Shown here: piece after piece, positions 712 through 55,013 of the stretch
Numbering within the stretch: the first letter of the stretch is position 1
Layout of the letters: each line of letters opens with the position of its first letter
Assembly: GCA_963668715.1 (NCBI GenBank)
Contig: OY764960.1
Location: forward strand, 3,953,438-4,017,437
Length of the DNA stretch: 64,000 nt
Direction: 5' to 3'
Source of the DNA: Bacteroidales bacterium
Lineage (GTDB): Bacteria; Bacteroidota; Bacteroidia; Bacteroidales; VadinHA17
Position numbers and translations under genes: made by a program
The notes under the pieces: generated by a model
Told to the model about the DNA's origin: nothing
The model's input: the letters and a program-made list of their open reading frames with translations, nothing else
The model's database searches: none

Positions 712-875
712 TAAAGCGCTAACCGAAGTTTACTCTCTTTCCTTCGTGAGATCGCTTCGTTAAGTTCGCACTGAGGGCGAAGCCAAATTGCGTTTAGGCA
801 CGTTTTGGCTCTATGCCCGGATAAAGCTCTGTTTATTATCATAAAGTTACGAAAGCAATTTGGTTTAGCGCAGCG
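712..875. repeat. Non-coding palindromic module family B, copy 1 (degenerate)
   Basis: Shares CCAAATTGCGTTTAGGCACGTTTTGGCTC...GGATAAAGCT...CATAAAGTTAC.AAAGCAATTTGGTTTAGCG with 2949-3240 and 19120-19469. Confidence 0.85.
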
Positions 876-894
876 GCATAATACAATCTATTAA

Positions 895-1236
895 TTGCAG
901 AATTCCATTTTTTCTTTTCGGCGAGCAGTAAAGGCTTATTTATGGGTAGTTCGTTCAGTGATGGACAATTTGGTGTTTTTTCATTACGATAAAGGGTCCA
1001 GGGCCCAGAAAGTTGTCATAGAATTACTCCATAATTACAAAGATGCCGTTCAAACGGATGGTTACGATGTTTATTCTATCTATGAGGATAAACAGGCCTG
1101 TGATATTAATCCCAGGGAGTGGATGACAGATGTCCTTAACAGAATCCCGGAATATAATAACAACTACGACCTGGATCTGGCAGATTTGCTCCCTCACAAC
1201 TGGAAGAAATCCAAGTGTCAGGAAAAATCCAACTAA
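895..1236 (+). pseudogene. IS66-family transposase (TnpC) remnant, internally deleted
   Basis: YLWV...FFHYDKGSR...QTDGY core motif fused directly to the C-terminal 'INPREWMTDVL...LLPHNWK' IS66 domain; IS66-type end ...GGCTTAC at ~1327. Confidence 0.8.
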
Positions 1237-1327
1237 AGTCAACGAAAATCCGGAAATCTTTGGAGATGCTCTAACAAATCCTGGACTATCTTTGATTTTT
1301 ACTACACGCAGCAGGCCGAAGGCTTAC

Positions 1328-1517
1328 TGACGTGCCATCTCATCCTCAGCAAACACCCGCCTTAATATGCGATTCTTGTTCATCAGTACAGGATTTTGCA
1401 GTCAGGCTTCCTTCATGCGGCACCTCACGATGCAACACTTGCCTCTTGCTAGCAGTTCAGTTTACCTCTGCCTGCTCGGGACTTGCACCCTATAGTTAAT
1501 GCCCATGCCGGGCGCAC
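1328..1517 (-). mobile_element. 5' fragment (domain I) of a class C group II intron
   Basis: Minus strand begins GTGCGCCCGGCATGGGC...TATAGGGTGCAAGTCCCGA...GAAGGAAGC, matching the IIC intron 5' end (GUGYGCCCGGCAUGGG); truncated at the IS66 end; no RT ORF or domain V/VI present. Confidence 0.8.
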
Positions 1518-1706
1518 ACGGTAAATTGTATGTTGCGTAGGGCATTTCAAGGCACTTTCCTGTCAAATTGCTAAGTAGCCGAAGCGCAGGTTTGACACCT
1601 GCGAATTAAGCACACCGTCAAAGCTGCGCTTCGGCGGTGCTGAAAAGAGAGCCCAAGCTTCAAATACGGCATATCTGCCCTATGCAATATACAAAATGTT
1701 GTGCCC
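1518..1706 (-). repeat. attC-like cassette recombination site 1
   Basis: Inverted arms TTGTATGTTGCGTAGGGCA / TGCCCTATGCAATATACAA; inverse core GTTGTGCCC at 1698; core GT(T) at 1519-1518 interrupted by the intron. Confidence 0.8.
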
Positions 1707-1743
1707 AGTACTTTATCTTCATTTTCTCTGCAAGATATTCAAT

Positions 1744-2058
1744 TCATCTCGAATATGCTTGAATTTCATCAATTAAGCCTTTCTCGTATGCCTTTTTTAC
1801 AGGTTTCCACACCCCAAGCCTATTTAAGAATAAACTAGCATAATTTCTTTGTATTAAAGTACCGTTAAATAAGTAATCTGTTATACGCTCAATACCTTCC
1901 TTTTTCTCTACCAAACTCAATGCAAAATCTACATATCTGGTCATCGCCAATGTTGCATCAACAGTTAATTTATCCATTATATAATCAACATCCTTAGAAT
2001 TGCCACTTTGAGCCTTATCAATTAACACTTTTAGTTCTCCTGAAAATTGAAACTTCAT
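1744..2058 (-). CDS. Hypothetical protein (cassette C2)
   Basis: Clean 104-aa ORF, 8 bp from the upstream gene, ends just before an attC-like site. Confidence 0.7.
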   Translation of the reverse strand: MKFQFSGELKVLIDKAQSGNSKDVDYIMDKLTVDATLAMTRYVDFALSLVEKKEGIERITDYLFNGTLIQRNYASLFLNRLGVWKPVKKAYEKGLIDEIQAYSR

Positions 2059-2066
2059 TACGCTCT

Positions 2067-2297
2067 TTATTTAAGTTGAATAAGAGTGTTGGTTTCCATT
2101 CCTTTTCGTATCCAACGCATAAGTGTAATTGCTTTGTACTCTCTTTCCAGATAAGTCGTTTTTAACTCATCATCCATACTATTTATCTCCAATTGATATA
2201 GATGGTTTTCTGTTTCAATGTGATAATAAACTTTTCCTGCACAAACAAAAGACAATATTGCTTTTGTACCTTTTACAATTGTTTTTAAATTTTCCAT
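2067..2297 (-). CDS. Hypothetical protein (cassette C2)
   Basis: 76-aa ORF, co-oriented in the cassette, downstream of an FNR-type box. Confidence 0.65.
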   Translation of the reverse strand: MENLKTIVKGTKAILSFVCAGKVYYHIETENHLYQLEINSMDDELKTTYLEREYKAITLMRWIRKGMETNTLIQLK

Positions 2298-2342
2298 CGC
2301 TACTAAAATTTTTGCGAAGGAACTGTGATTAATTATATTTTC

Positions 2343-2360
2343 TTTTGATGTATATCAAAA
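2343..2360. promoter_or_regulatory. Crp/Fnr-family operator (TTTTGAT-GTAT-ATCAAAA)
   Basis: Exact TTGAT-N4-ATCAA consensus, lying between the Crp/Fnr gene and two downstream ORFs. Confidence 0.65.
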
Positions 2361-2367
2361 AATGCAA

Positions 2368-2946
2368 TCAAGCTTTTCTTATCCGGCTTAAAGTTTCTTG
2401 CGAAATACCTAATATTGACGCAATATATCCAAGTTTTGCTCTCTTTATAATCTCAGGGGAAATTTGTTGTAAATACTCATATTTTCCTTTTGCATCTCTT
2501 TGATTTAATTCTCTTGTGTGTTTGTCTATATTTGAAAATTCTTTCCCCATCATTGCATTTACAAATATCATAATCTGAGGAAATTGAGCAAGTTTCTCGC
2601 TATTTGCTTTTGTTATGCTAATAACTTCTGTATTCTCAGTCGCTTGTAAATACTCTTCGGATAAAATATTTTGTGCATAGCTTTGTAATGAAGTAAATGT
2701 TTCATTCTCTGTGTGAATCCAAGTCGTAATTTCTTTTCCGTTATGAATGTAATATTTACGAACCATCCCTGATTTTATAAACCAAATTTTATTACAACGC
2801 TGCCCTTGTTCAAGAATGTGTTCATTTTTTGTATAAATCTCAATCTTAGCAAAATCATTTAATCCTGTAACTGCATCAGAATCTAATTTCACAAATCTTT
2901 CTATGTAATCAATCAATTGTTTCACTGCGGTTTTTGTATTGGGCAC
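2368..2946 (-). CDS. Crp/Fnr-family cyclic-nucleotide-binding regulator (cassette C2); true start may be the GTG ~20 nt inside
   Basis: cNMP domain (KNEHILEQGQRCNKIWFIKSGMVRKYY) and C-terminal 'YIASILGISQETLSRIR' HTH. Confidence 0.9.
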   Translation of the reverse strand: MPNTKTAVKQLIDYIERFVKLDSDAVTGLNDFAKIEIYTKNEHILEQGQRCNKIWFIKSGMVRKYYIHNGKEITTWIHTENETFTSLQSYAQNILSEEYLQATENTEVISITKANSEKLAQFPQIMIFVNAMMGKEFSNIDKHTRELNQRDAKGKYEYLQQISPEIIKRAKLGYIASILGISQETLSRIRKA

Positions 2947-2948
2947 AA

Positions 2949-3240
2949 TGCAGCGCTAAACGAAGTTCCGCACTAAGGGCGATTCCGCAAGAGCTTGCTC
3001 TTAGCGGAAGTAAAGCCCGCAAGGGCGGAGCCAAATTGCGTTTAGGCACGTTTTGGCTCAATGCCCGGATAAAGCTGTTTATTTTCATAAAGTTACAAAA
3101 GCAATTTGGTTTAGCGCTGCGTTCGAGCACATTTTCCAAAAGACCGGGACCCCGAGAATTCGGGGGAAGGGATTTTGGTCAGCTTTAGCTGAACCGAGGC
3201 CCGGTTCCGGGCCGAGCTCGGCGAAGCCAATGTGCCTAAC
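2949..3240. repeat. Non-coding palindromic module family B, copy 2
   Basis: 12-bp inverted repeats GCAGCGCTAAAC (2950) / GTTTAGCGCTGC (~3109) and several internal hairpins; homologous to 19120-19469. Confidence 0.85.
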
Positions 3241-3368
3241 GGTCACTTGTATGTGGTCGGGCGGGATTTCTGGAAGAAATCGTGTCAGACCCGCAGGAAA
3301 GTGGGCACGAGGTCTGACTTGTCAGACCGCTAAAACCCCCGCCTGCCATATACAAATTGTTATAGCCA
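3232..3368 (-). repeat. attC-like site 2 (intact)
   Basis: GTGCCTAAC-N8-GTATG...arms TTGTATGTGGTCGGGCGGG / CCCGCCTGCCATATACAA...TATAC-N5-GTTATAGCC. Confidence 0.85.
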
Positions 3369-3381
3369 GTGGTTTTATTCA

Positions 3382-4044
3382 TTATTCAAAGTCTTGATTA
3401 AATAAATACATCTCTAATTGGTCCGCTTCGACTTGATTGTCTTTAGCCAAATTATGAATTAAACTATTAAATTTTTGATAATCTGTAAATTTTGAAGATG
3501 GACTAACATTTACAATTTCAAATATTTCTCTTGGTGTCGTTAGCTTTACTAAAGATGCTGCTACTCTAATGTCAAAAATTATTGCATAATTGTCGACATT
3601 TTTAGCTCTTGTCGCGAAGTATAATATTTTTGTCAGGTAGCTAACGCCAAGACCTTTTATTCCCTTTAATTCTTCAAAAGCGTTTTTCAGACTGTCTTGT
3701 TCGTTTTTGTTTATAAAGTCTATTGCTTTTTTTATTTTCTCTGTGTTGTCATTATTTGAGATATAATTATTCGTCCGGTGAGTTCCATAACCTGTGTCAG
3801 CAAATCCCCAAATCATTGTCAATAAAAACGCCCTCATAAAACCTTTGGAATTGTCTGAAAAATATTCTTTATAAGCGTCTATTACATTTTGTCTTGAAAC
3901 TTCCTTGTTTTCAAAGTCTGTAATTAAATTCTTGAAGTCTGCATTTAATTTTGTCCACTTTGTCGAATTGTACATAAATTTTGAGTCAGTAAGTGGATTT
4001 AATTTTAGTATTTTATTTTTTTGTTGGTCGTTTAATGTAATCAT
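3382..4044 (-). CDS. OGG-like (HhH) DNA glycosylase-family protein (cassette C3)
   Basis: 'TMIWG' motif, HhH-like 'GIKGLGVSYLTKILYF' and 'IFDIRV' motif typical of 8-oxoguanine glycosylase-like proteins. Confidence 0.65.
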   Translation of the reverse strand: MITLNDQQKNKILKLNPLTDSKFMYNSTKWTKLNADFKNLITDFENKEVSRQNVIDAYKEYFSDNSKGFMRAFLLTMIWGFADTGYGTHRTNNYISNNDNTEKIKKAIDFINKNEQDSLKNAFEELKGIKGLGVSYLTKILYFATRAKNVDNYAIIFDIRVAASLVKLTTPREIFEIVNVSPSSKFTDYQKFNSLIHNLAKDNQVEADQLEMYLFNQDFE

Positions 4045-4121
4045 ACTCTATGTTTTGTGTGTCGTTCTACCATTGGCTATAACGTGAGTCTGTACAAATA
4101 CTGTTTTATCACATAAATTTA

Positions 4122-4449
4122 TCAATTTCTACTGTTTGTCAGCGGATTTGAAGCAACTAATTTTAGATGGCACAAAAAGAGAATATCCTTATTTGACGGG
4201 AAATAATCCTTTAAAGCAAGGCTTATAATGAGTCTTAGGTCTGAAATTATAAGAAAACAGTACTCCCTGAGGAGTCTGATCAGCTTTTGTGCTCCCATAA
4301 TTGAGATACAACGGCAGATATTATACCCGGTAAACATAAGTCCGACTTCACCCATGACTTTCTCCCTGGTTCTTACAAGGGTATAAGTGAAGCCTTGTTG
4401 CCGTTTCATTGTGCCAAACATATGCTCCGTTATTTGTTGCCGTAATCTG
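4122..4449 (-). pseudogene. C-terminal part of the IS1182 transposase, split off by IS21
   Basis: 'LRQQITEHMFGTMKRQQGFTYTLVR...' matches the C-terminus of 20965..22527. Confidence 0.9.
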
Positions 4450-4581
4450 TGCATATTCCTGCGATTTCGGACACTAAATCCCGCTGAAAGCGGACAGTTG
4501 TTCCCGTTCAAAACGGACACCTGATCCCGACGAAAACGGACACTTTTCACATCGTTCATTTTCGTTTATTATTTTCTAAAA

Positions 4582-5316
4582 TTAATCATTTTTATATTTC
4601 TCTCTTAACGAGTCTCCATCGAGCTCTATTCTATGAGAACTATGCACTAATCTATCAAGGATCGCGTCAGCGATCGTAGGTTCTCCAATAACATCATACC
4701 AGCTTTTAACCGGAAGCTGTGATGTAATTATCGTTGACCTTTTACCATGCCGGTCTTCGAGTAACTCAAGCAAGAACAGCCTCTGGTTGTTATCTAATGG
4801 TTTAAGCCCGAAGTCATCAAGGATCAACAGGTCCAGTTTCTCTATCCTGTTTATTTCGCTTATATAACTGCCATCTGCCTTAGCCATTTTTAGTTGATCG
4901 AACAGTTTTGAGCAGTTACGGTAATATACTTTATATCCCTGCTGACAGGCCTGATGACCCAAAGCAGAAGCCAAAAAGCTTTTACCCAGTCCTGTGTATC
5001 CGGATATGATGATGCTTTGTTTTCTTTTGATCCATTCACAGGACGATAAACGCAGCATCTGTACTTTATCCAGTTTTCTTTTAGCGATGTAATCTATTTG
5101 TTCCATGCTCGCCTGGTAGCGGAACCTGGCGTTTTTTATTAGTCGATCCAGTCGTCGATTATATCGATCATCCCATTCTGCCTGGACAAGATGAGCAATA
5201 ACTTCATCTATGGTAAAATCTTTACTCATTCCTGATTCCTGCATTTTCCGATAGACTCTTGAGAACCCGCTCAGTCGCATCTCCTCAAGTTTCTGCATTG
5301 TTGCTGTTTGATTCAT
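4582..5316 (-). CDS. istB: IS21 helper ATPase IstB
   Basis: Walker A GYTGLGKS, Walker B LLILDDFG, TSQLP...W...IADAILDRLVH. Confidence 0.95.
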   Translation of the reverse strand: MNQTATMQKLEEMRLSGFSRVYRKMQESGMSKDFTIDEVIAHLVQAEWDDRYNRRLDRLIKNARFRYQASMEQIDYIAKRKLDKVQMLRLSSCEWIKRKQSIIISGYTGLGKSFLASALGHQACQQGYKVYYRNCSKLFDQLKMAKADGSYISEINRIEKLDLLILDDFGLKPLDNNQRLFLLELLEDRHGKRSTIITSQLPVKSWYDVIGEPTIADAILDRLVHSSHRIELDGDSLREKYKND

Positions 5317-10681: not shown

Positions 10682-10815
10682 GCACAACGGTTGGTGTATG
10701 AGGCGTTGGGCATTTCGAAGCACTTCACTGTCAAACCGCTAATATGTTTATTAAATGTACTCATGCTTCAATTAACCACTTGCTGCCCAATGACTTATAC
10801 ACATTGTTGTGTGCC
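10682..10815 (-). repeat. attC-like site 4 (intact)
   Basis: GCACAAC-N7-GTATG; arms GTGTATGAGGCGTTGGGCA / TGCCCAATGACTTATACAC; TATAC-N5-GTTGTGTGCC at 10806. Confidence 0.85.
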
Positions 10816-19119: not shown

Positions 19120-19469
19120 TGCAGCGCTAAACGAAGTTCCGCACTGAGGGCGAAGGCTGCCGAGCTTGCTCGAGCAGACTGTAAAGCCCGCAAGGGCGGG
19201 ACCAAATTGCGTTTAGCGTCCATGTTCTGACACGTTTTGGCTCGATGCCCAGGTAAAGCTGTTTATTATCATAAAGTTACTAAAGCAATTTGGTTTAGCG
19301 ACTTGTTCTTGCACGTTTGGGCTCGATGCCCGGATAAAGCTGTTTATTATCATAAAGTTACAAAAGCAATTTGGTTTAGCGCTGCATTCGAGCACATTTT
19401 CCAAAAGACCGGGACCCCGAGAATTCGGGGGTAGGGATTTTGGTCAGCTTTAGCTGAATGTGCTCGAAC
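19120..19469. repeat. Non-coding palindromic module family B, copy 3, with an internal 81-82 bp tandem duplication
   Basis: TGCAGCGCTAAAC (19120) / GTTTAGCGCTGCA (19374); duplicated unit across 19211-19381; TTCGAGCACATT / AATGTGCTCGAA inverted pair across 19388-19468. Confidence 0.9.
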
Positions 19470-19597
19470 GTACACATGTATGAAATGTTTGGGGTTTGCG
19501 GGCTCGTCTCTGTCAACCGTTACAAAAGCGGATGCGGAGGAGAATATTTCGAGTAAACACTAAGCCCCCAAATATTTTATACATGATGTTATGGTGC
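19463..19597 (-). repeat. attC-like site 5
   Basis: CGAAC-N8-GTATG; arms CATGTATGAAATGTTTGGGG / CCCCAAATATTTTATACATG; TATAC-N5-GTTATGGTGC at 19588. Confidence 0.85.
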
Positions 19598-20894: not shown

Positions 20895-20927
20895 TTTGTT
20901 GGTTGTCTTTTAAATGCACCATAACGG

Positions 20928-22629
20928 GAGTCTGTGCAAAAACTGCTTTCATCACATAAATTTATCAATTTCTACTATTTGTAAGTGGTTTAAAAGCAAT
21001 TAATTTCAAATGGTAGCACAAATTATTTGACGGGAAATAATCCTTTAAAGCGAGGCTTATAAAGCATCTCAGGTCTGAAATTGTAAAAAAACAGTACTCC
21101 CTGAGGAGTCTGATCAGCTTTTGTGCTCCCATAATTGAGATACAACGGCAGATATTATACCCGGTAAACATAAGTCCGACTTCACCCATGACTTTCTCCC
21201 TGGTTCTTACAAGGGTATATGTGAAGCCTTGTTGCCGTTTCATTGTGCCAAACATATGCTCCGTTATTTGTTGTCGTAATCTGTAATAATCAGGATTGTC
21301 ATTCACTCTTTGTGCATTGGCTTCAATGATATCAGCATATTCACTGCGGTCAATGTACCTTCCGTTGGCTCTGCATACAGTGCAAAGACTCCTGTTTCTA
21401 CAGTCCCTGCAGCCAGGCGTAGTATATCTCTTAAACCGATATGCAGATTTCTTCTTATTCTTTCTGTCACTGTGATTATGCCAACGTCCGTTGGTCTTCA
21501 TAATGCTTCCTCCGGGACAGATATAAAAATCATTCTTTTTATCATAGGTAAAACTACTGACAGGATATAATCCTGCATCTTTTGTTGATGGCTTCTTTGG
21601 AGAGACGTATGTAATAATATTATGTAAGCTGCATTCTTTCAATTGCTCGCCTGTGTGATACCCCTTATCGGCAAGTACTGTCATAGTATCAACTTTAAGA
21701 AGTTCTTTTGTACTTACCGCCACCGGTGCCAGTGCATGGGAATCATTCACATCTCCTGTGTCATATTCCAGCATCATCTTGTGCTTTGAATCTGATGCGG
21801 CCTGTATATTATAACCAACATTCACTACTTTCCTGTGTAGTACAACGGCTTTTGAATCAGGGTCTGTTGTTGATATCTGTTCCTGTCCGCTTTCGATCAG
21901 GTCAGCTTGTATATTTTGATACTCTGATCTCTTAAGCCTGCGTTCTGTAAGTTTCTTTTCAATGTCTTTCTTATCCTGCTCATTGTCATTGGCATCCAGC
22001 AGTTCTTCATATTCACTGATCTGTTTGTCAATATATTCAATATGCCTTTTCAGTTTTGCTTCATTGAAATTATTCTTTAACGAATTGCTCCCTCTTATTT
22101 TGAAAGAATCAATTGCCACGTTTTCACCTTCTACAAGATCCCATTCCTTAAGCAGGCAAACGAATCGCCGGAATATCTCCCTGAATGCTTTTGCATTTTC
22201 TTTTCTGAAGTTAGCAATGGTCTTATATTTGGGTCTCAGTCCCGTGAGCAGCCACATAGCTTCGATATTGGTTTGAGCCTCTCTCTCAAGTTTTCTGGAT
22301 GACCGTATTCCATACCTGTAACCATACAGGTACAGCTTAAGCAGGACCGAAGGATGGTAAGGAGGCCTCCCTTGTTCTTCACATTTTACATGATCAAATC
22401 CAAAGCTTCCCAGGTCAACTACATCAACAAAGGCATCAACCACACGGACAAATGAATCGGCAGCTATTGCATTCTCCAGGCAGAACATTAGCATTTGGTT
22501 CCTGTTTTCTCCCTGTTTGTGTTGCATTACAGTGTTTATTTGTTGAATACAAGATACTTAAAGTATGATCAAAAATTAAATATCGAATGAATTGGTTATC
22601 AACAAAACAGTAGGTTTTTGCACAGTCTG
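20928..22629 (-). mobile_element. IS1182-family element copy 2 (intact, 1702 bp), 4-bp target duplication ACGG
   Basis: GAGTCTGTGCAAAAAC / GTTTTTGCACAGTCTG ends; ACGG at 20924-20927 and 22630-22633. Confidence 0.9.
20965..22527 (-). CDS. IS1182-family transposase
   Basis: DUF772 'GRPPYHP', 'IDSFKI', 'ADKGY', 'EHMFGTMKR' motifs. Confidence 0.95.
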   Translation of the reverse strand: MQHKQGENRNQMLMFCLENAIAADSFVRVVDAFVDVVDLGSFGFDHVKCEEQGRPPYHPSVLLKLYLYGYRYGIRSSRKLEREAQTNIEAMWLLTGLRPKYKTIANFRKENAKAFREIFRRFVCLLKEWDLVEGENVAIDSFKIRGSNSLKNNFNEAKLKRHIEYIDKQISEYEELLDANDNEQDKKDIEKKLTERRLKRSEYQNIQADLIESGQEQISTTDPDSKAVVLHRKVVNVGYNIQAASDSKHKMMLEYDTGDVNDSHALAPVAVSTKELLKVDTMTVLADKGYHTGEQLKECSLHNIITYVSPKKPSTKDAGLYPVSSFTYDKKNDFYICPGGSIMKTNGRWHNHSDRKNKKKSAYRFKRYTTPGCRDCRNRSLCTVCRANGRYIDRSEYADIIEANAQRVNDNPDYYRLRQQITEHMFGTMKRQQGFTYTLVRTREKVMGEVGLMFTGYNICRCISIMGAQKLIRLLREYCFFTISDLRCFISLALKDYFPSNNLCYHLKLIAFKPLTNSRN

Positions 22630-22760
22630 ACGGATGGCAATATGCGGAGGCCGGGATTTCGAAGCTCCAACTTGTCAAGCCGTTGCGAATTTGAGTAAAT
22701 GTACAAAAGTTCAAATTACCCACAACCCCCGGCTTACGTATATTGCGTGTTAGGCATTGG
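22630..22760 (-). repeat. attC-like site 6 (core split by IS1182)
   Basis: (A)AC-N8-ATATG; arms GCAATATGCGGAGGCCGGG / CCCGGCTTACGTATATTGC; N5-GTTAGGCA at 22749. Confidence 0.85.
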
Positions 22761-53938: not shown

Positions 53939-54640
53939 ATGAAAAAATCACTCTTTGTTCTGTCAGCCCTGTTGCTGACAATATATGCCGGCGGGCAGGA
54001 TCTCGACAATATCGTAAAAAAACATCTGAAAGCTATAAATGCCGCGAAGCTTTCCGAATTCAAATCGCTCATGGTAAAGGGATCTCTCAGCCAGCAAGGT
54101 ATGATACTTGACATGCTTATGTATGAAAAAGCCCCTGATAAACTCAAGGCCGTCACTACATTCAACGGCATGGATATAGTACAAATTGTCAACGGTGACA
54201 AGGGAATAATGATAAACCCCATGATGGGATCAACCGAACCCGTCAATATTCCCCCCGACCAGATCGAATCAATAAAAAGCAGCAGCATGCTGGGAAGCAG
54301 CATAGAGAAGGAATACAAGGCCGGTAATCTTGAAACGGACGGCGAAGGTGAGGTAGACGGAAGTCCTGCATATAAGATAAAAGTAAAGTCGCCCGTAGGA
54401 GACAGAACTGTCTATATTGACAAAAAAACATACTATATCACGCAGATAAGTATGAGTGTAAGCCAGATGGGAACGGACTATGACGTGGATATGAAAATGA
54501 GCAATTTTGAAACTATTGACGGGGTACCGCTGGCCAAAACAATAGACACATATATGAACGGAATGGCTGCGGGCAGTCTGACCTATGACAGCATACAGTT
54601 CAACGTGAGTATAGACGATTCGGAATTTGATATTAAATAA
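53939..54640 (+). CDS. Secreted LolA-like / outer-membrane lipoprotein-sorting-type protein
   Basis: Signal peptide MKKSLFVL...; beta-rich; C-terminal 'IQFNVSIDDSEF'. Confidence 0.7.
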   Translation: MKKSLFVLSALLLTIYAGGQDLDNIVKKHLKAINAAKLSEFKSLMVKGSLSQQGMILDMLMYEKAPDKLKAVTTFNGMDIVQIVNGDKGIMINPMMGSTEPVNIPPDQIESIKSSSMLGSSIEKEYKAGNLETDGEGEVDGSPAYKIKVKSPVGDRTVYIDKKTYYITQISMSVSQMGTDYDVDMKMSNFETIDGVPLAKTIDTYMNGMAAGSLTYDSIQFNVSIDDSEFDIK

Positions 54641-54641
54641 A

Positions 54642-55013
54642 GCAGCAAACCTGTAAGCCGGATTCTGTAACCCGGTCTGCTGTCTCACAGAGATAATCGG
54701 CCGGGCTTTCTGCCATTTATCTGGGCCATCCATCACTGGGTGGCTCTAACGACCTACCCCCCGGCATCGGACGAGCAATCCTCAAAGCCGGTATACATGG
54801 TCTTTCAACCCATAAGACGTACGGCGCGAAGTGTTGCCACCCCGCCCGGTGAGCTCTTACCTCACCTTTTCACCCTTACCCCGAGTGATCGGGGCGGTTA
54901 TTTTCTGTTACGCTGCTATACCCTCAGGGGTATCTTCCCGTTAGGAAGTATGGCGCTCTGCGTTGTCCGGACTTTCCTCCCCGGGTGTCCGGGGCGGCAG
55001 AACGGTTTGCTGC
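54642..55013 (-). ncRNA. rnpB: RNase P RNA (type A)
   Basis: - strand GAGGAAAGTCCGG...AGAGCGCCA...GAATCCGGCTTAC; P1 ends GCAGCAAACC / GGTTTGCTGC. Confidence 0.97.

Follow-up and report, generated by a model that had tools for sequence, protein, structure and literature searches.

Organization of the Locus

Close to the left end of the window (the whole 64,000-nt stretch of DNA analysed, from a Bacteroidales genome hereafter called G000), the last ORF of a cassette is followed by a long imperfect palindrome, a 5' fragment of a group IIC intron, a remnant of an IS66-family element and a palindrome-rich repeat module (Table 1). The ORF ends with a stop codon at 1744-1746, and 226 nt separate this codon from the intron junction downstream on the same strand. 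On the minus strand, the 3' arm of the palindrome, the spacer and the GT are read in this order and are followed by GTGCGCCCGGCATGGGC from 1517; the intron fragment is co-oriented with the cassette genes and begins right after the GT of the expected GTT core, 3' of the attC-like palindrome. An earlier sequence-only reading had placed a group IIC fragment at GT^T (the caret marks the insertion point) within 1328-1545; these coordinates are accurate, and the assignment agrees with the match reported below to RF02001, the same Rfam type as that of the published IIC-attC introns.

Table 1. Features at the left end of the window (window coordinates; a slash marks an exon-intron junction).
Feature	Position	Strand	Remarks
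Palindrome-rich repeat module	716..875	minus	directly adjoins the IS remnant; dozens of copies in array regions
IS66-family remnant cutting the intron	878..1327	plus	terminal repeat ends at 1327; left boundary approximate
Intron 5' fragment, 190 nt	1328..1517	minus	GTGCG at 1517-1513; EBS1 loop ACGT at 1333-1330
IBS1 CGT	1520-1518	minus	same position reads ..CGT/ in 15 relatives
Spacer TTTACC (1525-1520) and GT (1519-1518), the first two bases of the expected GTT core	1518..1525	minus	read from sequence
3' arm (L'-like) TGCCCTACGCAACATACAA	1526..1544	minus	pairs with 1676-1694
Inner G+C-rich hairpin in the variable centre	1578..1635	minus	19-nt arms, 95% complementary
5' arm (L''-like) TTGTATATTGCATAGGGCA	1676..1694	minus	19 nt, 89% complementary to the 3' arm
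Inverse-core-like box GGGCACAAC (R''-like)	1698..1706	minus	5' base of the palindrome
Last cassette ORF, 104 aa	1744..2058	minus	no Pfam match; the 3' site of its cassette carries the intron

The minus strand from 1517 to 1328 corresponds to the first 190 nt of a group IIC intron, as identified by Rfam and by a match to a full copy elsewhere in the genome. Rfam model RF02001 (group-II-D1D4-3, gathering score 32) matches the minus strand from 1434 to 1315 with 44.7 bits (E 8.7e-6 over the whole window), so that the fragment scores as group II RNA, which the sequence-only reading had set as a test. The last 13 nt of this match (1327-1315) are a forced alignment onto the end of the IS, because intron homology stops at 1328. 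The intron boundaries are of the 5' GUGYG/3' AY type, with GTGCG at window position 1517 and ..CTCGAT at the ends of full copies. The stump lacks distal domain I, domains II-VI and the reverse-transcriptase gene, and the window has neither its D5/D6 nor any part of that gene. A modest score and an alignment that partly runs onto IS DNA are what a chance resemblance or a non-intron repeat might produce, but over its 190 nt the stump shares 97-98% identity with the 5' end of the full intron at G000:2414255, a copy that carries a reverse-transcriptase gene, D5 and D6. This identity rules out such an origin, the probability of which we regard as negligible.

Identity to the full intron ends at 1328, and the sequence from 1327 (GTAAGCC..., the minus strand reading GTAAGCCTTCGGCC...) is the end of an IS66-family element that recurs at G000:24374. 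On the plus strand, positions 895-1236 hold an internally deleted transposase ORF with matches to Pfam DDE_Tnp_IS66 and IS66_C. The stump is dead because the IS66-family remnant cuts the intron off 2 nt past the exon-binding (EBS1) loop, and the window locus has lost the 3' half of the split core and every 3' part of the intron. The window copy is a dead, inert remnant. After the intron inserted, an IS66-family element would have landed 2 nt past EBS1, and a subsequent deletion would have taken away the remaining intron sequence together with the TRRRY half of the core and the greater part of the IS.

Further window copies of the adjoining palindrome-rich module are found at 2947-3240 and 19120-19470, and in the genome the module is confined to six array regions, at about 0.88-0.97, 1.70-1.73, 2.40-2.43, 2.66, 3.16-3.18 and 3.93-3.97 Mb. 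Elsewhere in the window, a bacterial RNase P RNA of class A is found on the minus strand at 54638-55013 (243.5 bits).

A Full Copy of the Intron in the Same Genome

The full copy occupies G000:2414255-2417974 on the plus strand, i.e., positions 1256-4975 of the extracted locus L010 (G000 2413000-2423000). It scores 121 bits on RF02001 and 39 bits on RF01998, and its D5/D6 at L010 4896-4975 scores 37.1 bits on RF00029 (E 1.8e-5), just under the gathering score of 40. Its junctions read TTTAAC GT/GTGCG...CTCGAT/TGGGT, removal of the intron restores GTTGGGT, and GCCCAAC is found at the other base of the L010 palindrome. The upstream neighbour, a glyoxalase-family gene, and the downstream genes are all on the strand of the intron. 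The reverse-transcriptase ORF is in two pieces (RVT_1 and GIIM), as another, distinct group II intron (L010 2432-4297) interrupts it immediately behind the YADD codons; this second intron matches the Rfam D1D4-2 model and has its own 427-aa reverse transcriptase and a D5/D6 of 55 bits. Given this nested second intron with its own protein, the L010 element is a twintron. The genome holds two copies of the intron, the window stump and the interrupted L010 copy, and neither is intact.

A relative of the nested intron is found on the minus strand of locus L012 at about 3407-5275 (G000 ~910.4-912.3 kb). On the 5' side it is flanked by the 3' arm of an attC-like palindrome (..TCCCAACGTTTCATAC/GTGTGCC), and on the 3' side by the portion of yet another reverse-transcriptase gene that comes after YADD. 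From these flanks, the L012 element looks like a chimeric product of recombination between intron copies.

A Clade of Introns Inserted at CGT^T

Searches with the N-terminal 222 aa of the reverse transcriptase yielded 79 loci from genomes (one genome per species) and 80 from metagenomes. Fifteen of them form a clade: six genome copies with 74-82% and nine metagenome copies with 63-81% reverse-transcriptase identity. The genome copies are those of L010, Carboxylicivirga linearis, a Marinoscillum MAG and three Bacteroidales/Bacteroidetes MAGs, and all named hosts are Bacteroidota. The intact introns are 1834-1871 nt long, plus one of 1955 nt, and full members score 119-125 bits on RF02001, compared with 131.7 bits for reference IIC-attC introns. 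The protein, exemplified by that of L013, is 420 aa long and has RVT_1 and GIIM domains and no endonuclease domain. Its nearest named relatives are those of IIC-attC introns and of IIC introns of IncC plasmids, with 55-62% identity in the N-terminal region and 43% over the full length.

The 5' exon ends in CGT in all 15 members. The 3' exon starts with T at 10 of the 11 readable junctions (TGGGT, TGGCA, TATAC, TAGTG, TAGGC, TATTG, TAGCA, TATGG, TATAG and TGGGG), and the eleventh junction adjoins another intron. At each of the six genome loci, the closest ORF upstream (137-403 aa) shares the strand of the intron and stops 109-139 nt short of the junction; the genes downstream have the same orientation. 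The sequence-only reading had proposed that relatives be tabulated by insertion site and orientation; the tabulation places every one of the 15 at ..CGT^T.. of attC-like palindromes rather than after ordinary terminators, and all six genome copies in the sense of the neighbouring genes. In our full-text literature searches, no description was found of a Bacteroidota lineage with a sense-strand attC-type habit.

Two members lie next to other introns. On the metagenome contig L098 (1995 onward), the clade intron is directly followed by the 5' end of another group II intron (..CTCGAT/GTGTGCCCTGCATG), an arrangement of tandem or nested introns. In Carboxylicivirga linearis, a D5/D6 of another group II intron (L013 3159-3234; RF00029, 66.8 bits) is found just before the gene that precedes the clade intron, so that two neighbouring cassette boundaries may carry introns.

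The Host Palindromes are attC-Like

The host sites have the architecture of attC, i.e., an imperfect R''-L''...L'-R' palindrome with conserved AAC and GTT, and are found at the 3' ends of unrelated co-oriented genes. Their lengths, 103-199 nt, are at or above the classical attC range. At most sites, the 3' arm ends 2-7 nt before the junction, and its best partner lies 103-178 nt upstream with AAC before it. The arms of the window site pair in the minimum-energy fold of single-stranded DNA (z -3.2 against shuffles; duplex z -4.9). Among L014, L015, L104 and the window site, the arms are wholly different in sequence, yet complementary (duplex z -2.4 to -9.9). Other sites are A+T-rich, and several of the palindromes fold no better than shuffled sequence (z about 0). 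In a subfamily of homologous sites, 78% of cells pair in register when the full arms are specified, against 26-51% when the partners are slid; RNAalifold applied to eight of these sites predicts only the inner G+C part of the stem, and covariation in the subfamily is no better than in shuffles, a weakness that stems from the conservation of the subfamily. Support for the stem comes mainly from the non-homologous sites. Scans for AAC...hairpin...GTT were uninformative both in the genome (24 matches per strand against 32 in a reversed-sequence control) and in the window.

Within the window, an intact analogue of the split core reads ..CAACC GTTGTGC (~10692-10697). As for the ends of cassettes, the cassette start TTGTGCCC (~2937-2944) matches its own inverse core GGGCACAAC, and the same end-matching is found in two more window cassettes (TTATAGCC with GGCTATAAC and TTGGCAGC with GCTGCCAAC), for a total of three. 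An IS1182-type element (window ~8476 and ~4084; second copy at ~20905-22633) also appears to lie between the ..ACC and GTT of a like core, with junctions ..GATGACC/GTCAGACTG...CAGACTCAC/GTTATAGCC; its insertion point is 2 nt upstream of the GT^T used by the intron. The GTT core is a point of convergence for several mobile elements.

Paralogous empty sites served as the comparison for occupied ones, and no unoccupied copy of the window's own cassette was found in 60 relatives or in the host genome. Sites with 70-82% identity to the occupied L010 site are unoccupied in the same array region (G000 2.408, 2.422 and 2.433 Mb), with ends reading ..AAACGT^TCAGGC, ..CAACGT^TCAGGC and ..AACCGT^TGGCGG, and in an alignment of occupied and empty sites drawn from different genomes the mean identity is 73%. 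By these alignments, the palindromes are resident sites and not cargo of the intron.

No canonical integron integrase was found in the genome above the TIGR02249 cut-off. The best integrase-like gene encodes a 383-aa Xer-like tyrosine recombinase (G000 1736.4-1737.6 kb; L004 1189-2340, minus strand) that scores 184 on TIGR02249 (cut-off 265) and 214 on the XerA/integron model (cut-off 220), and is without the IntI-specific insert that aligns to IntI1 residues ~205-258. This gene lies a few kb from the array region at 1.695-1.730 Mb, which is rich in the palindrome-rich repeat module. As attC architecture, location at gene ends and end-matching are present, yet the genome has no IntI, we call the sites attC-like.

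The missing IntI, the position of the sites just 3' of genes on the sense strand and the weak folding of several of them also raise the question of whether the palindromes are terminator-like or REP-like gene-end structures and the intron an ordinary terminator-targeting IIC intron. Such introns are found among its relatives: those with 65-78% identical 5' RNA from the same genus or family (L183, L186, L188, L190 and L192) are inserted after Rho-independent terminators in the sense orientation. However, the stems of the clade sites are not followed by a T-run, the sites extend over 103-199 nt and have AAC at one base of the stem and GTT at the other, the starts of three cassettes match their own inverse core, the arrays contain unrelated co-oriented genes, and the insertion is fixed at GT^T whatever the sequence of the arms. 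We therefore consider this explanation improbable and retain the attC-like reading of the sites.

Recognition of the Target by EBS1

In an alignment of the first 300 nt of introns from all clades, EBS1 was located as the loop of a hairpin about 185 nt from the intron start; the 4-bp stem that closes the loop covaries, and the loop complements the end of the 5' exon in every clade. The EBS1/IBS1 pairs are ACG(U)/(A)CGU in the CGT clade, ACGA/UCGU in L104 and L105, ACAA/UUGU in the integron references and their relatives, AACA/UGUU in a Desulfatiglandales-type clade, GUAU/AUAC in the Endozoicomonas introns, CAU/AUG in L093, UAC/GUA in L092 and CAAG/CUUG in L090. The covariation of EBS1, the stem 2-7 nt upstream of the junction and the T at +1 are the stem-loop and short IBS1/IBS3 expected of an IIC target; EBS3 was not located in the intron. 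These comparisons show that CGT is read by the clade through a predicted EBS1-IBS1 pairing of 3-4 bp, which is a partial recognition. The sense strand of the sites reads CGT^T, and the complementary strand reads TGT^T in all nine sites read. As ACG could wobble-pair (G-T) with TGT, pairing alone does not fully explain the choice of strand, to which stem geometry probably contributes.

The Desulfatiglandales-type introns (L046-L056, L028, L036 and others, from Desulfatiglandales and other MAGs) form a large IIC clade whose members follow the ..TGTT/ of short AAC...GTT palindromes and for the most part run against the direction of the nearest ORF. From its sites and its EBS1, AACA, this clade looks like a further case of attC-type targeting, at GTT^, one base off the classical position.

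The Strand of the Intron and the Strand of Recombination

The sequence-only reading had suggested that these sites might differ from classical attC in strand preference. For the intron lineage this is what is found, as all 15 members use the gene-sense strand. In 11 of 15 sites, however, the fold of the bottom strand is at least as stable as that of the top strand, and in the four window sites it is the more stable by 5-7 kcal/mol. With no canonical integrase in the genome and a bottom strand that usually folds better, the strand chosen by the intron says nothing firm about the strand that recombines.

The uniform use of the sense strand might instead be a property of the sites, such that in an integrase-poor Bacteroidota system the gene-sense strand folds and recombines, and the intron simply tracks the folded strand. 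That the best recombinase lacks the IntI-specific insert and falls below both cut-offs would fit with such a system, to which classical attC rules need not apply. The folding energies just given point the other way, as do the spacers, whose asymmetry (a short R'' side and 5-6 nt on the R' side) has the polarity of the aadA1 attC, and the relatives of the intron in the same genus and family, which are terminator-targeting IIC introns and sense-oriented by habit. We judge it very unlikely that the sites dictate the strand, and favour a strand habit of the intron lineage.

The orientation relative to replication was also considered. Cumulative GC skew is lowest near 1.6 Mb and highest near 3.76 Mb, and gene-strand bias broadly agrees; dnaA is at 4.05 Mb and not at the skew minimum. 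By both measures, the two intron copies (plus strand at 2.41 Mb and minus strand at 3.95 Mb) are in the leading-strand sense, as would be expected of an intron that has no endonuclease and enters the lagging-strand template by reverse splicing (PMC4424553). The support from this agreement is weak (n = 2), and the arrays of the genome are not uniformly oriented to replication.

Proposed Mechanism and Implications

Based on sequence comparison and analogy with known IIC introns, we propose with considerable confidence that the window stump is a relic of a Bacteroidota IIC clade that retrohomes into the gene-sense strand of attC-like palindromes, at GT^T of the distal core. The insertion point would separate the GT from the T of this core and lie 2-7 nt beyond the 3' arm; as known from the behaviour of IIC introns, the DNA stem-loop may substitute for IBS2, and the endonuclease-less reverse transcriptase may take its primer from nascent DNA at the replication fork. 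Given its shared orientation with the cassettes, an intact member of the clade could be carried in the array transcript and then be spliced from it, whereas classical antisense IIC-attC introns presumably could not be spliced from array transcripts. Being spliced out, such introns could reside in arrays without blocking read-through.

The simplest history may be that a terminator-targeting Bacteroidota IIC intron moved to cassette-end palindromes and kept its ancestral sense orientation. We lean towards the view that the clade gained its specificity for cassette sites independently of the IIC-attC introns, probably from terminator-targeting ancestors, and came to use the gene-sense strand at the same GT^T position. 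The attachment of IIC introns to integrons is otherwise known only as the bottom-strand, antisense habit of one lineage and from one clinical case. If a second lineage uses the same base on the opposite strand and in a different phylum, this would demonstrate that the palindrome with its GTT core is a general landing pad for elements that seek single strands, and that the top strand too is accessible as a hairpin. If true, both strands of cassette sites would be exposed as hairpins in vivo, and sense introns would be spliceable from array transcripts, in the orientation that is needed by the gene-to-attC joining model of cassette genesis. The clade also offers a natural set of EBS1-IBS1 variants for testing strand choice by IIC introns. 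The interest of the window copy itself is limited to its having led to the clade and to the succession of insertions at one site that it records.

Comparison with Known Intron Systems

The IIC-attC introns are a monophyletic lineage that inserts into the bottom strand of attC, in the R'' box at TTGT/T, opposite to cassette transcription (PMC3001079; PMC7923331). The sequence-only reading had likewise placed them on the bottom strand, opposite to the cassette gene, and its account is confirmed by these two papers and by two plasmid integrons that were re-examined. The class 1 integron of Pseudomonas putida plasmid pVIM_Pse-KSS14 (L094) contains two reference introns among aac(6')-Ib', blaVIM-2, fosE, aadA1 and qacEdelta1, and a third reference intron is found beside blaIMP-4 (L096). 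All are antisense to the cassettes, start with GTACG and follow ..GAATTGT/ of the folded bottom strand, and reference 5' exons read ATTGT/ or TTTGT/. Introns of IncC and IncF plasmids, also tried as attC references, turned out to be terminator-type IIC introns.

Like the IIC-attC introns of the S.ma.I2/Kl.pn.I3 type, the CGT clade has a class C ribozyme that matches the same two Rfam D1-D4 models (RF02001 and RF01998), a protein without an endonuclease domain, with the full-length identity of 43% given above, a recombination-site palindrome as its target, a short EBS1-IBS1 pairing, a T at +1 and an insertion point that splits the GTT core after GT, directly 3' of a stem. They differ in that the clade is found in the top strand, on the R' side and in the sense orientation, whereas the classical introns are in the bottom strand, on the R'' side and antisense; CGT/T, EBS1 ACG(U) and 5' GUGYG of the clade also stand against TTGT/T, EBS1 ACAA and 5' GUACG of the classical introns. 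In maximum-likelihood trees of the 222-aa region, the 15 rows of the CGT clade (SH-aLRT 90-98) are separate from the reference clade (97-98), and the backbone between the two is without resolution. An AU test rejects uniting them (p 3e-36), a value of limited weight as it comes from a quick search with groups named after the tree had been seen. The CGT clade, which is probably of class C, falls outside the classical IIC-attC lineage in these trees, whose reference proteins are all from class C.

With the terminator-targeting IIC introns, i.e., those of the B.h.I1 type (Robart et al., 2007, as cited in PMC4424553), the clade shares the sense orientation and insertion a few bases beyond a stem-loop located downstream of a gene. 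Terminator-targeting introns follow a G+C-rich stem and a T-run and have a variable IBS1 (TTA, ATT, GTT or GGG), whereas the clade follows long imperfect palindromes with no T-run and is always at CGT^T.

Two further cases involve the sense orientation. According to PMC7923331, a group IIC intron of Enterobacter cloacae was found in the top strand of attC, in the sense orientation (Rodriguez-Martinez et al., 2012); as it is described there, this is a single insertion in a clinical class 1 integron, in contrast to the 15 or more independent insertions of the CGT clade, and the two are compared by description only. UHB.I2, a group IIB intron located just downstream of attC in cassette orientation (PMC7923331), resembles the clade in being in the sense orientation beside attC in an array without a nearby integrase; it differs in belonging to class IIB1/CL1 and in having no conserved flanking exon sequence reported (PMC7923331).
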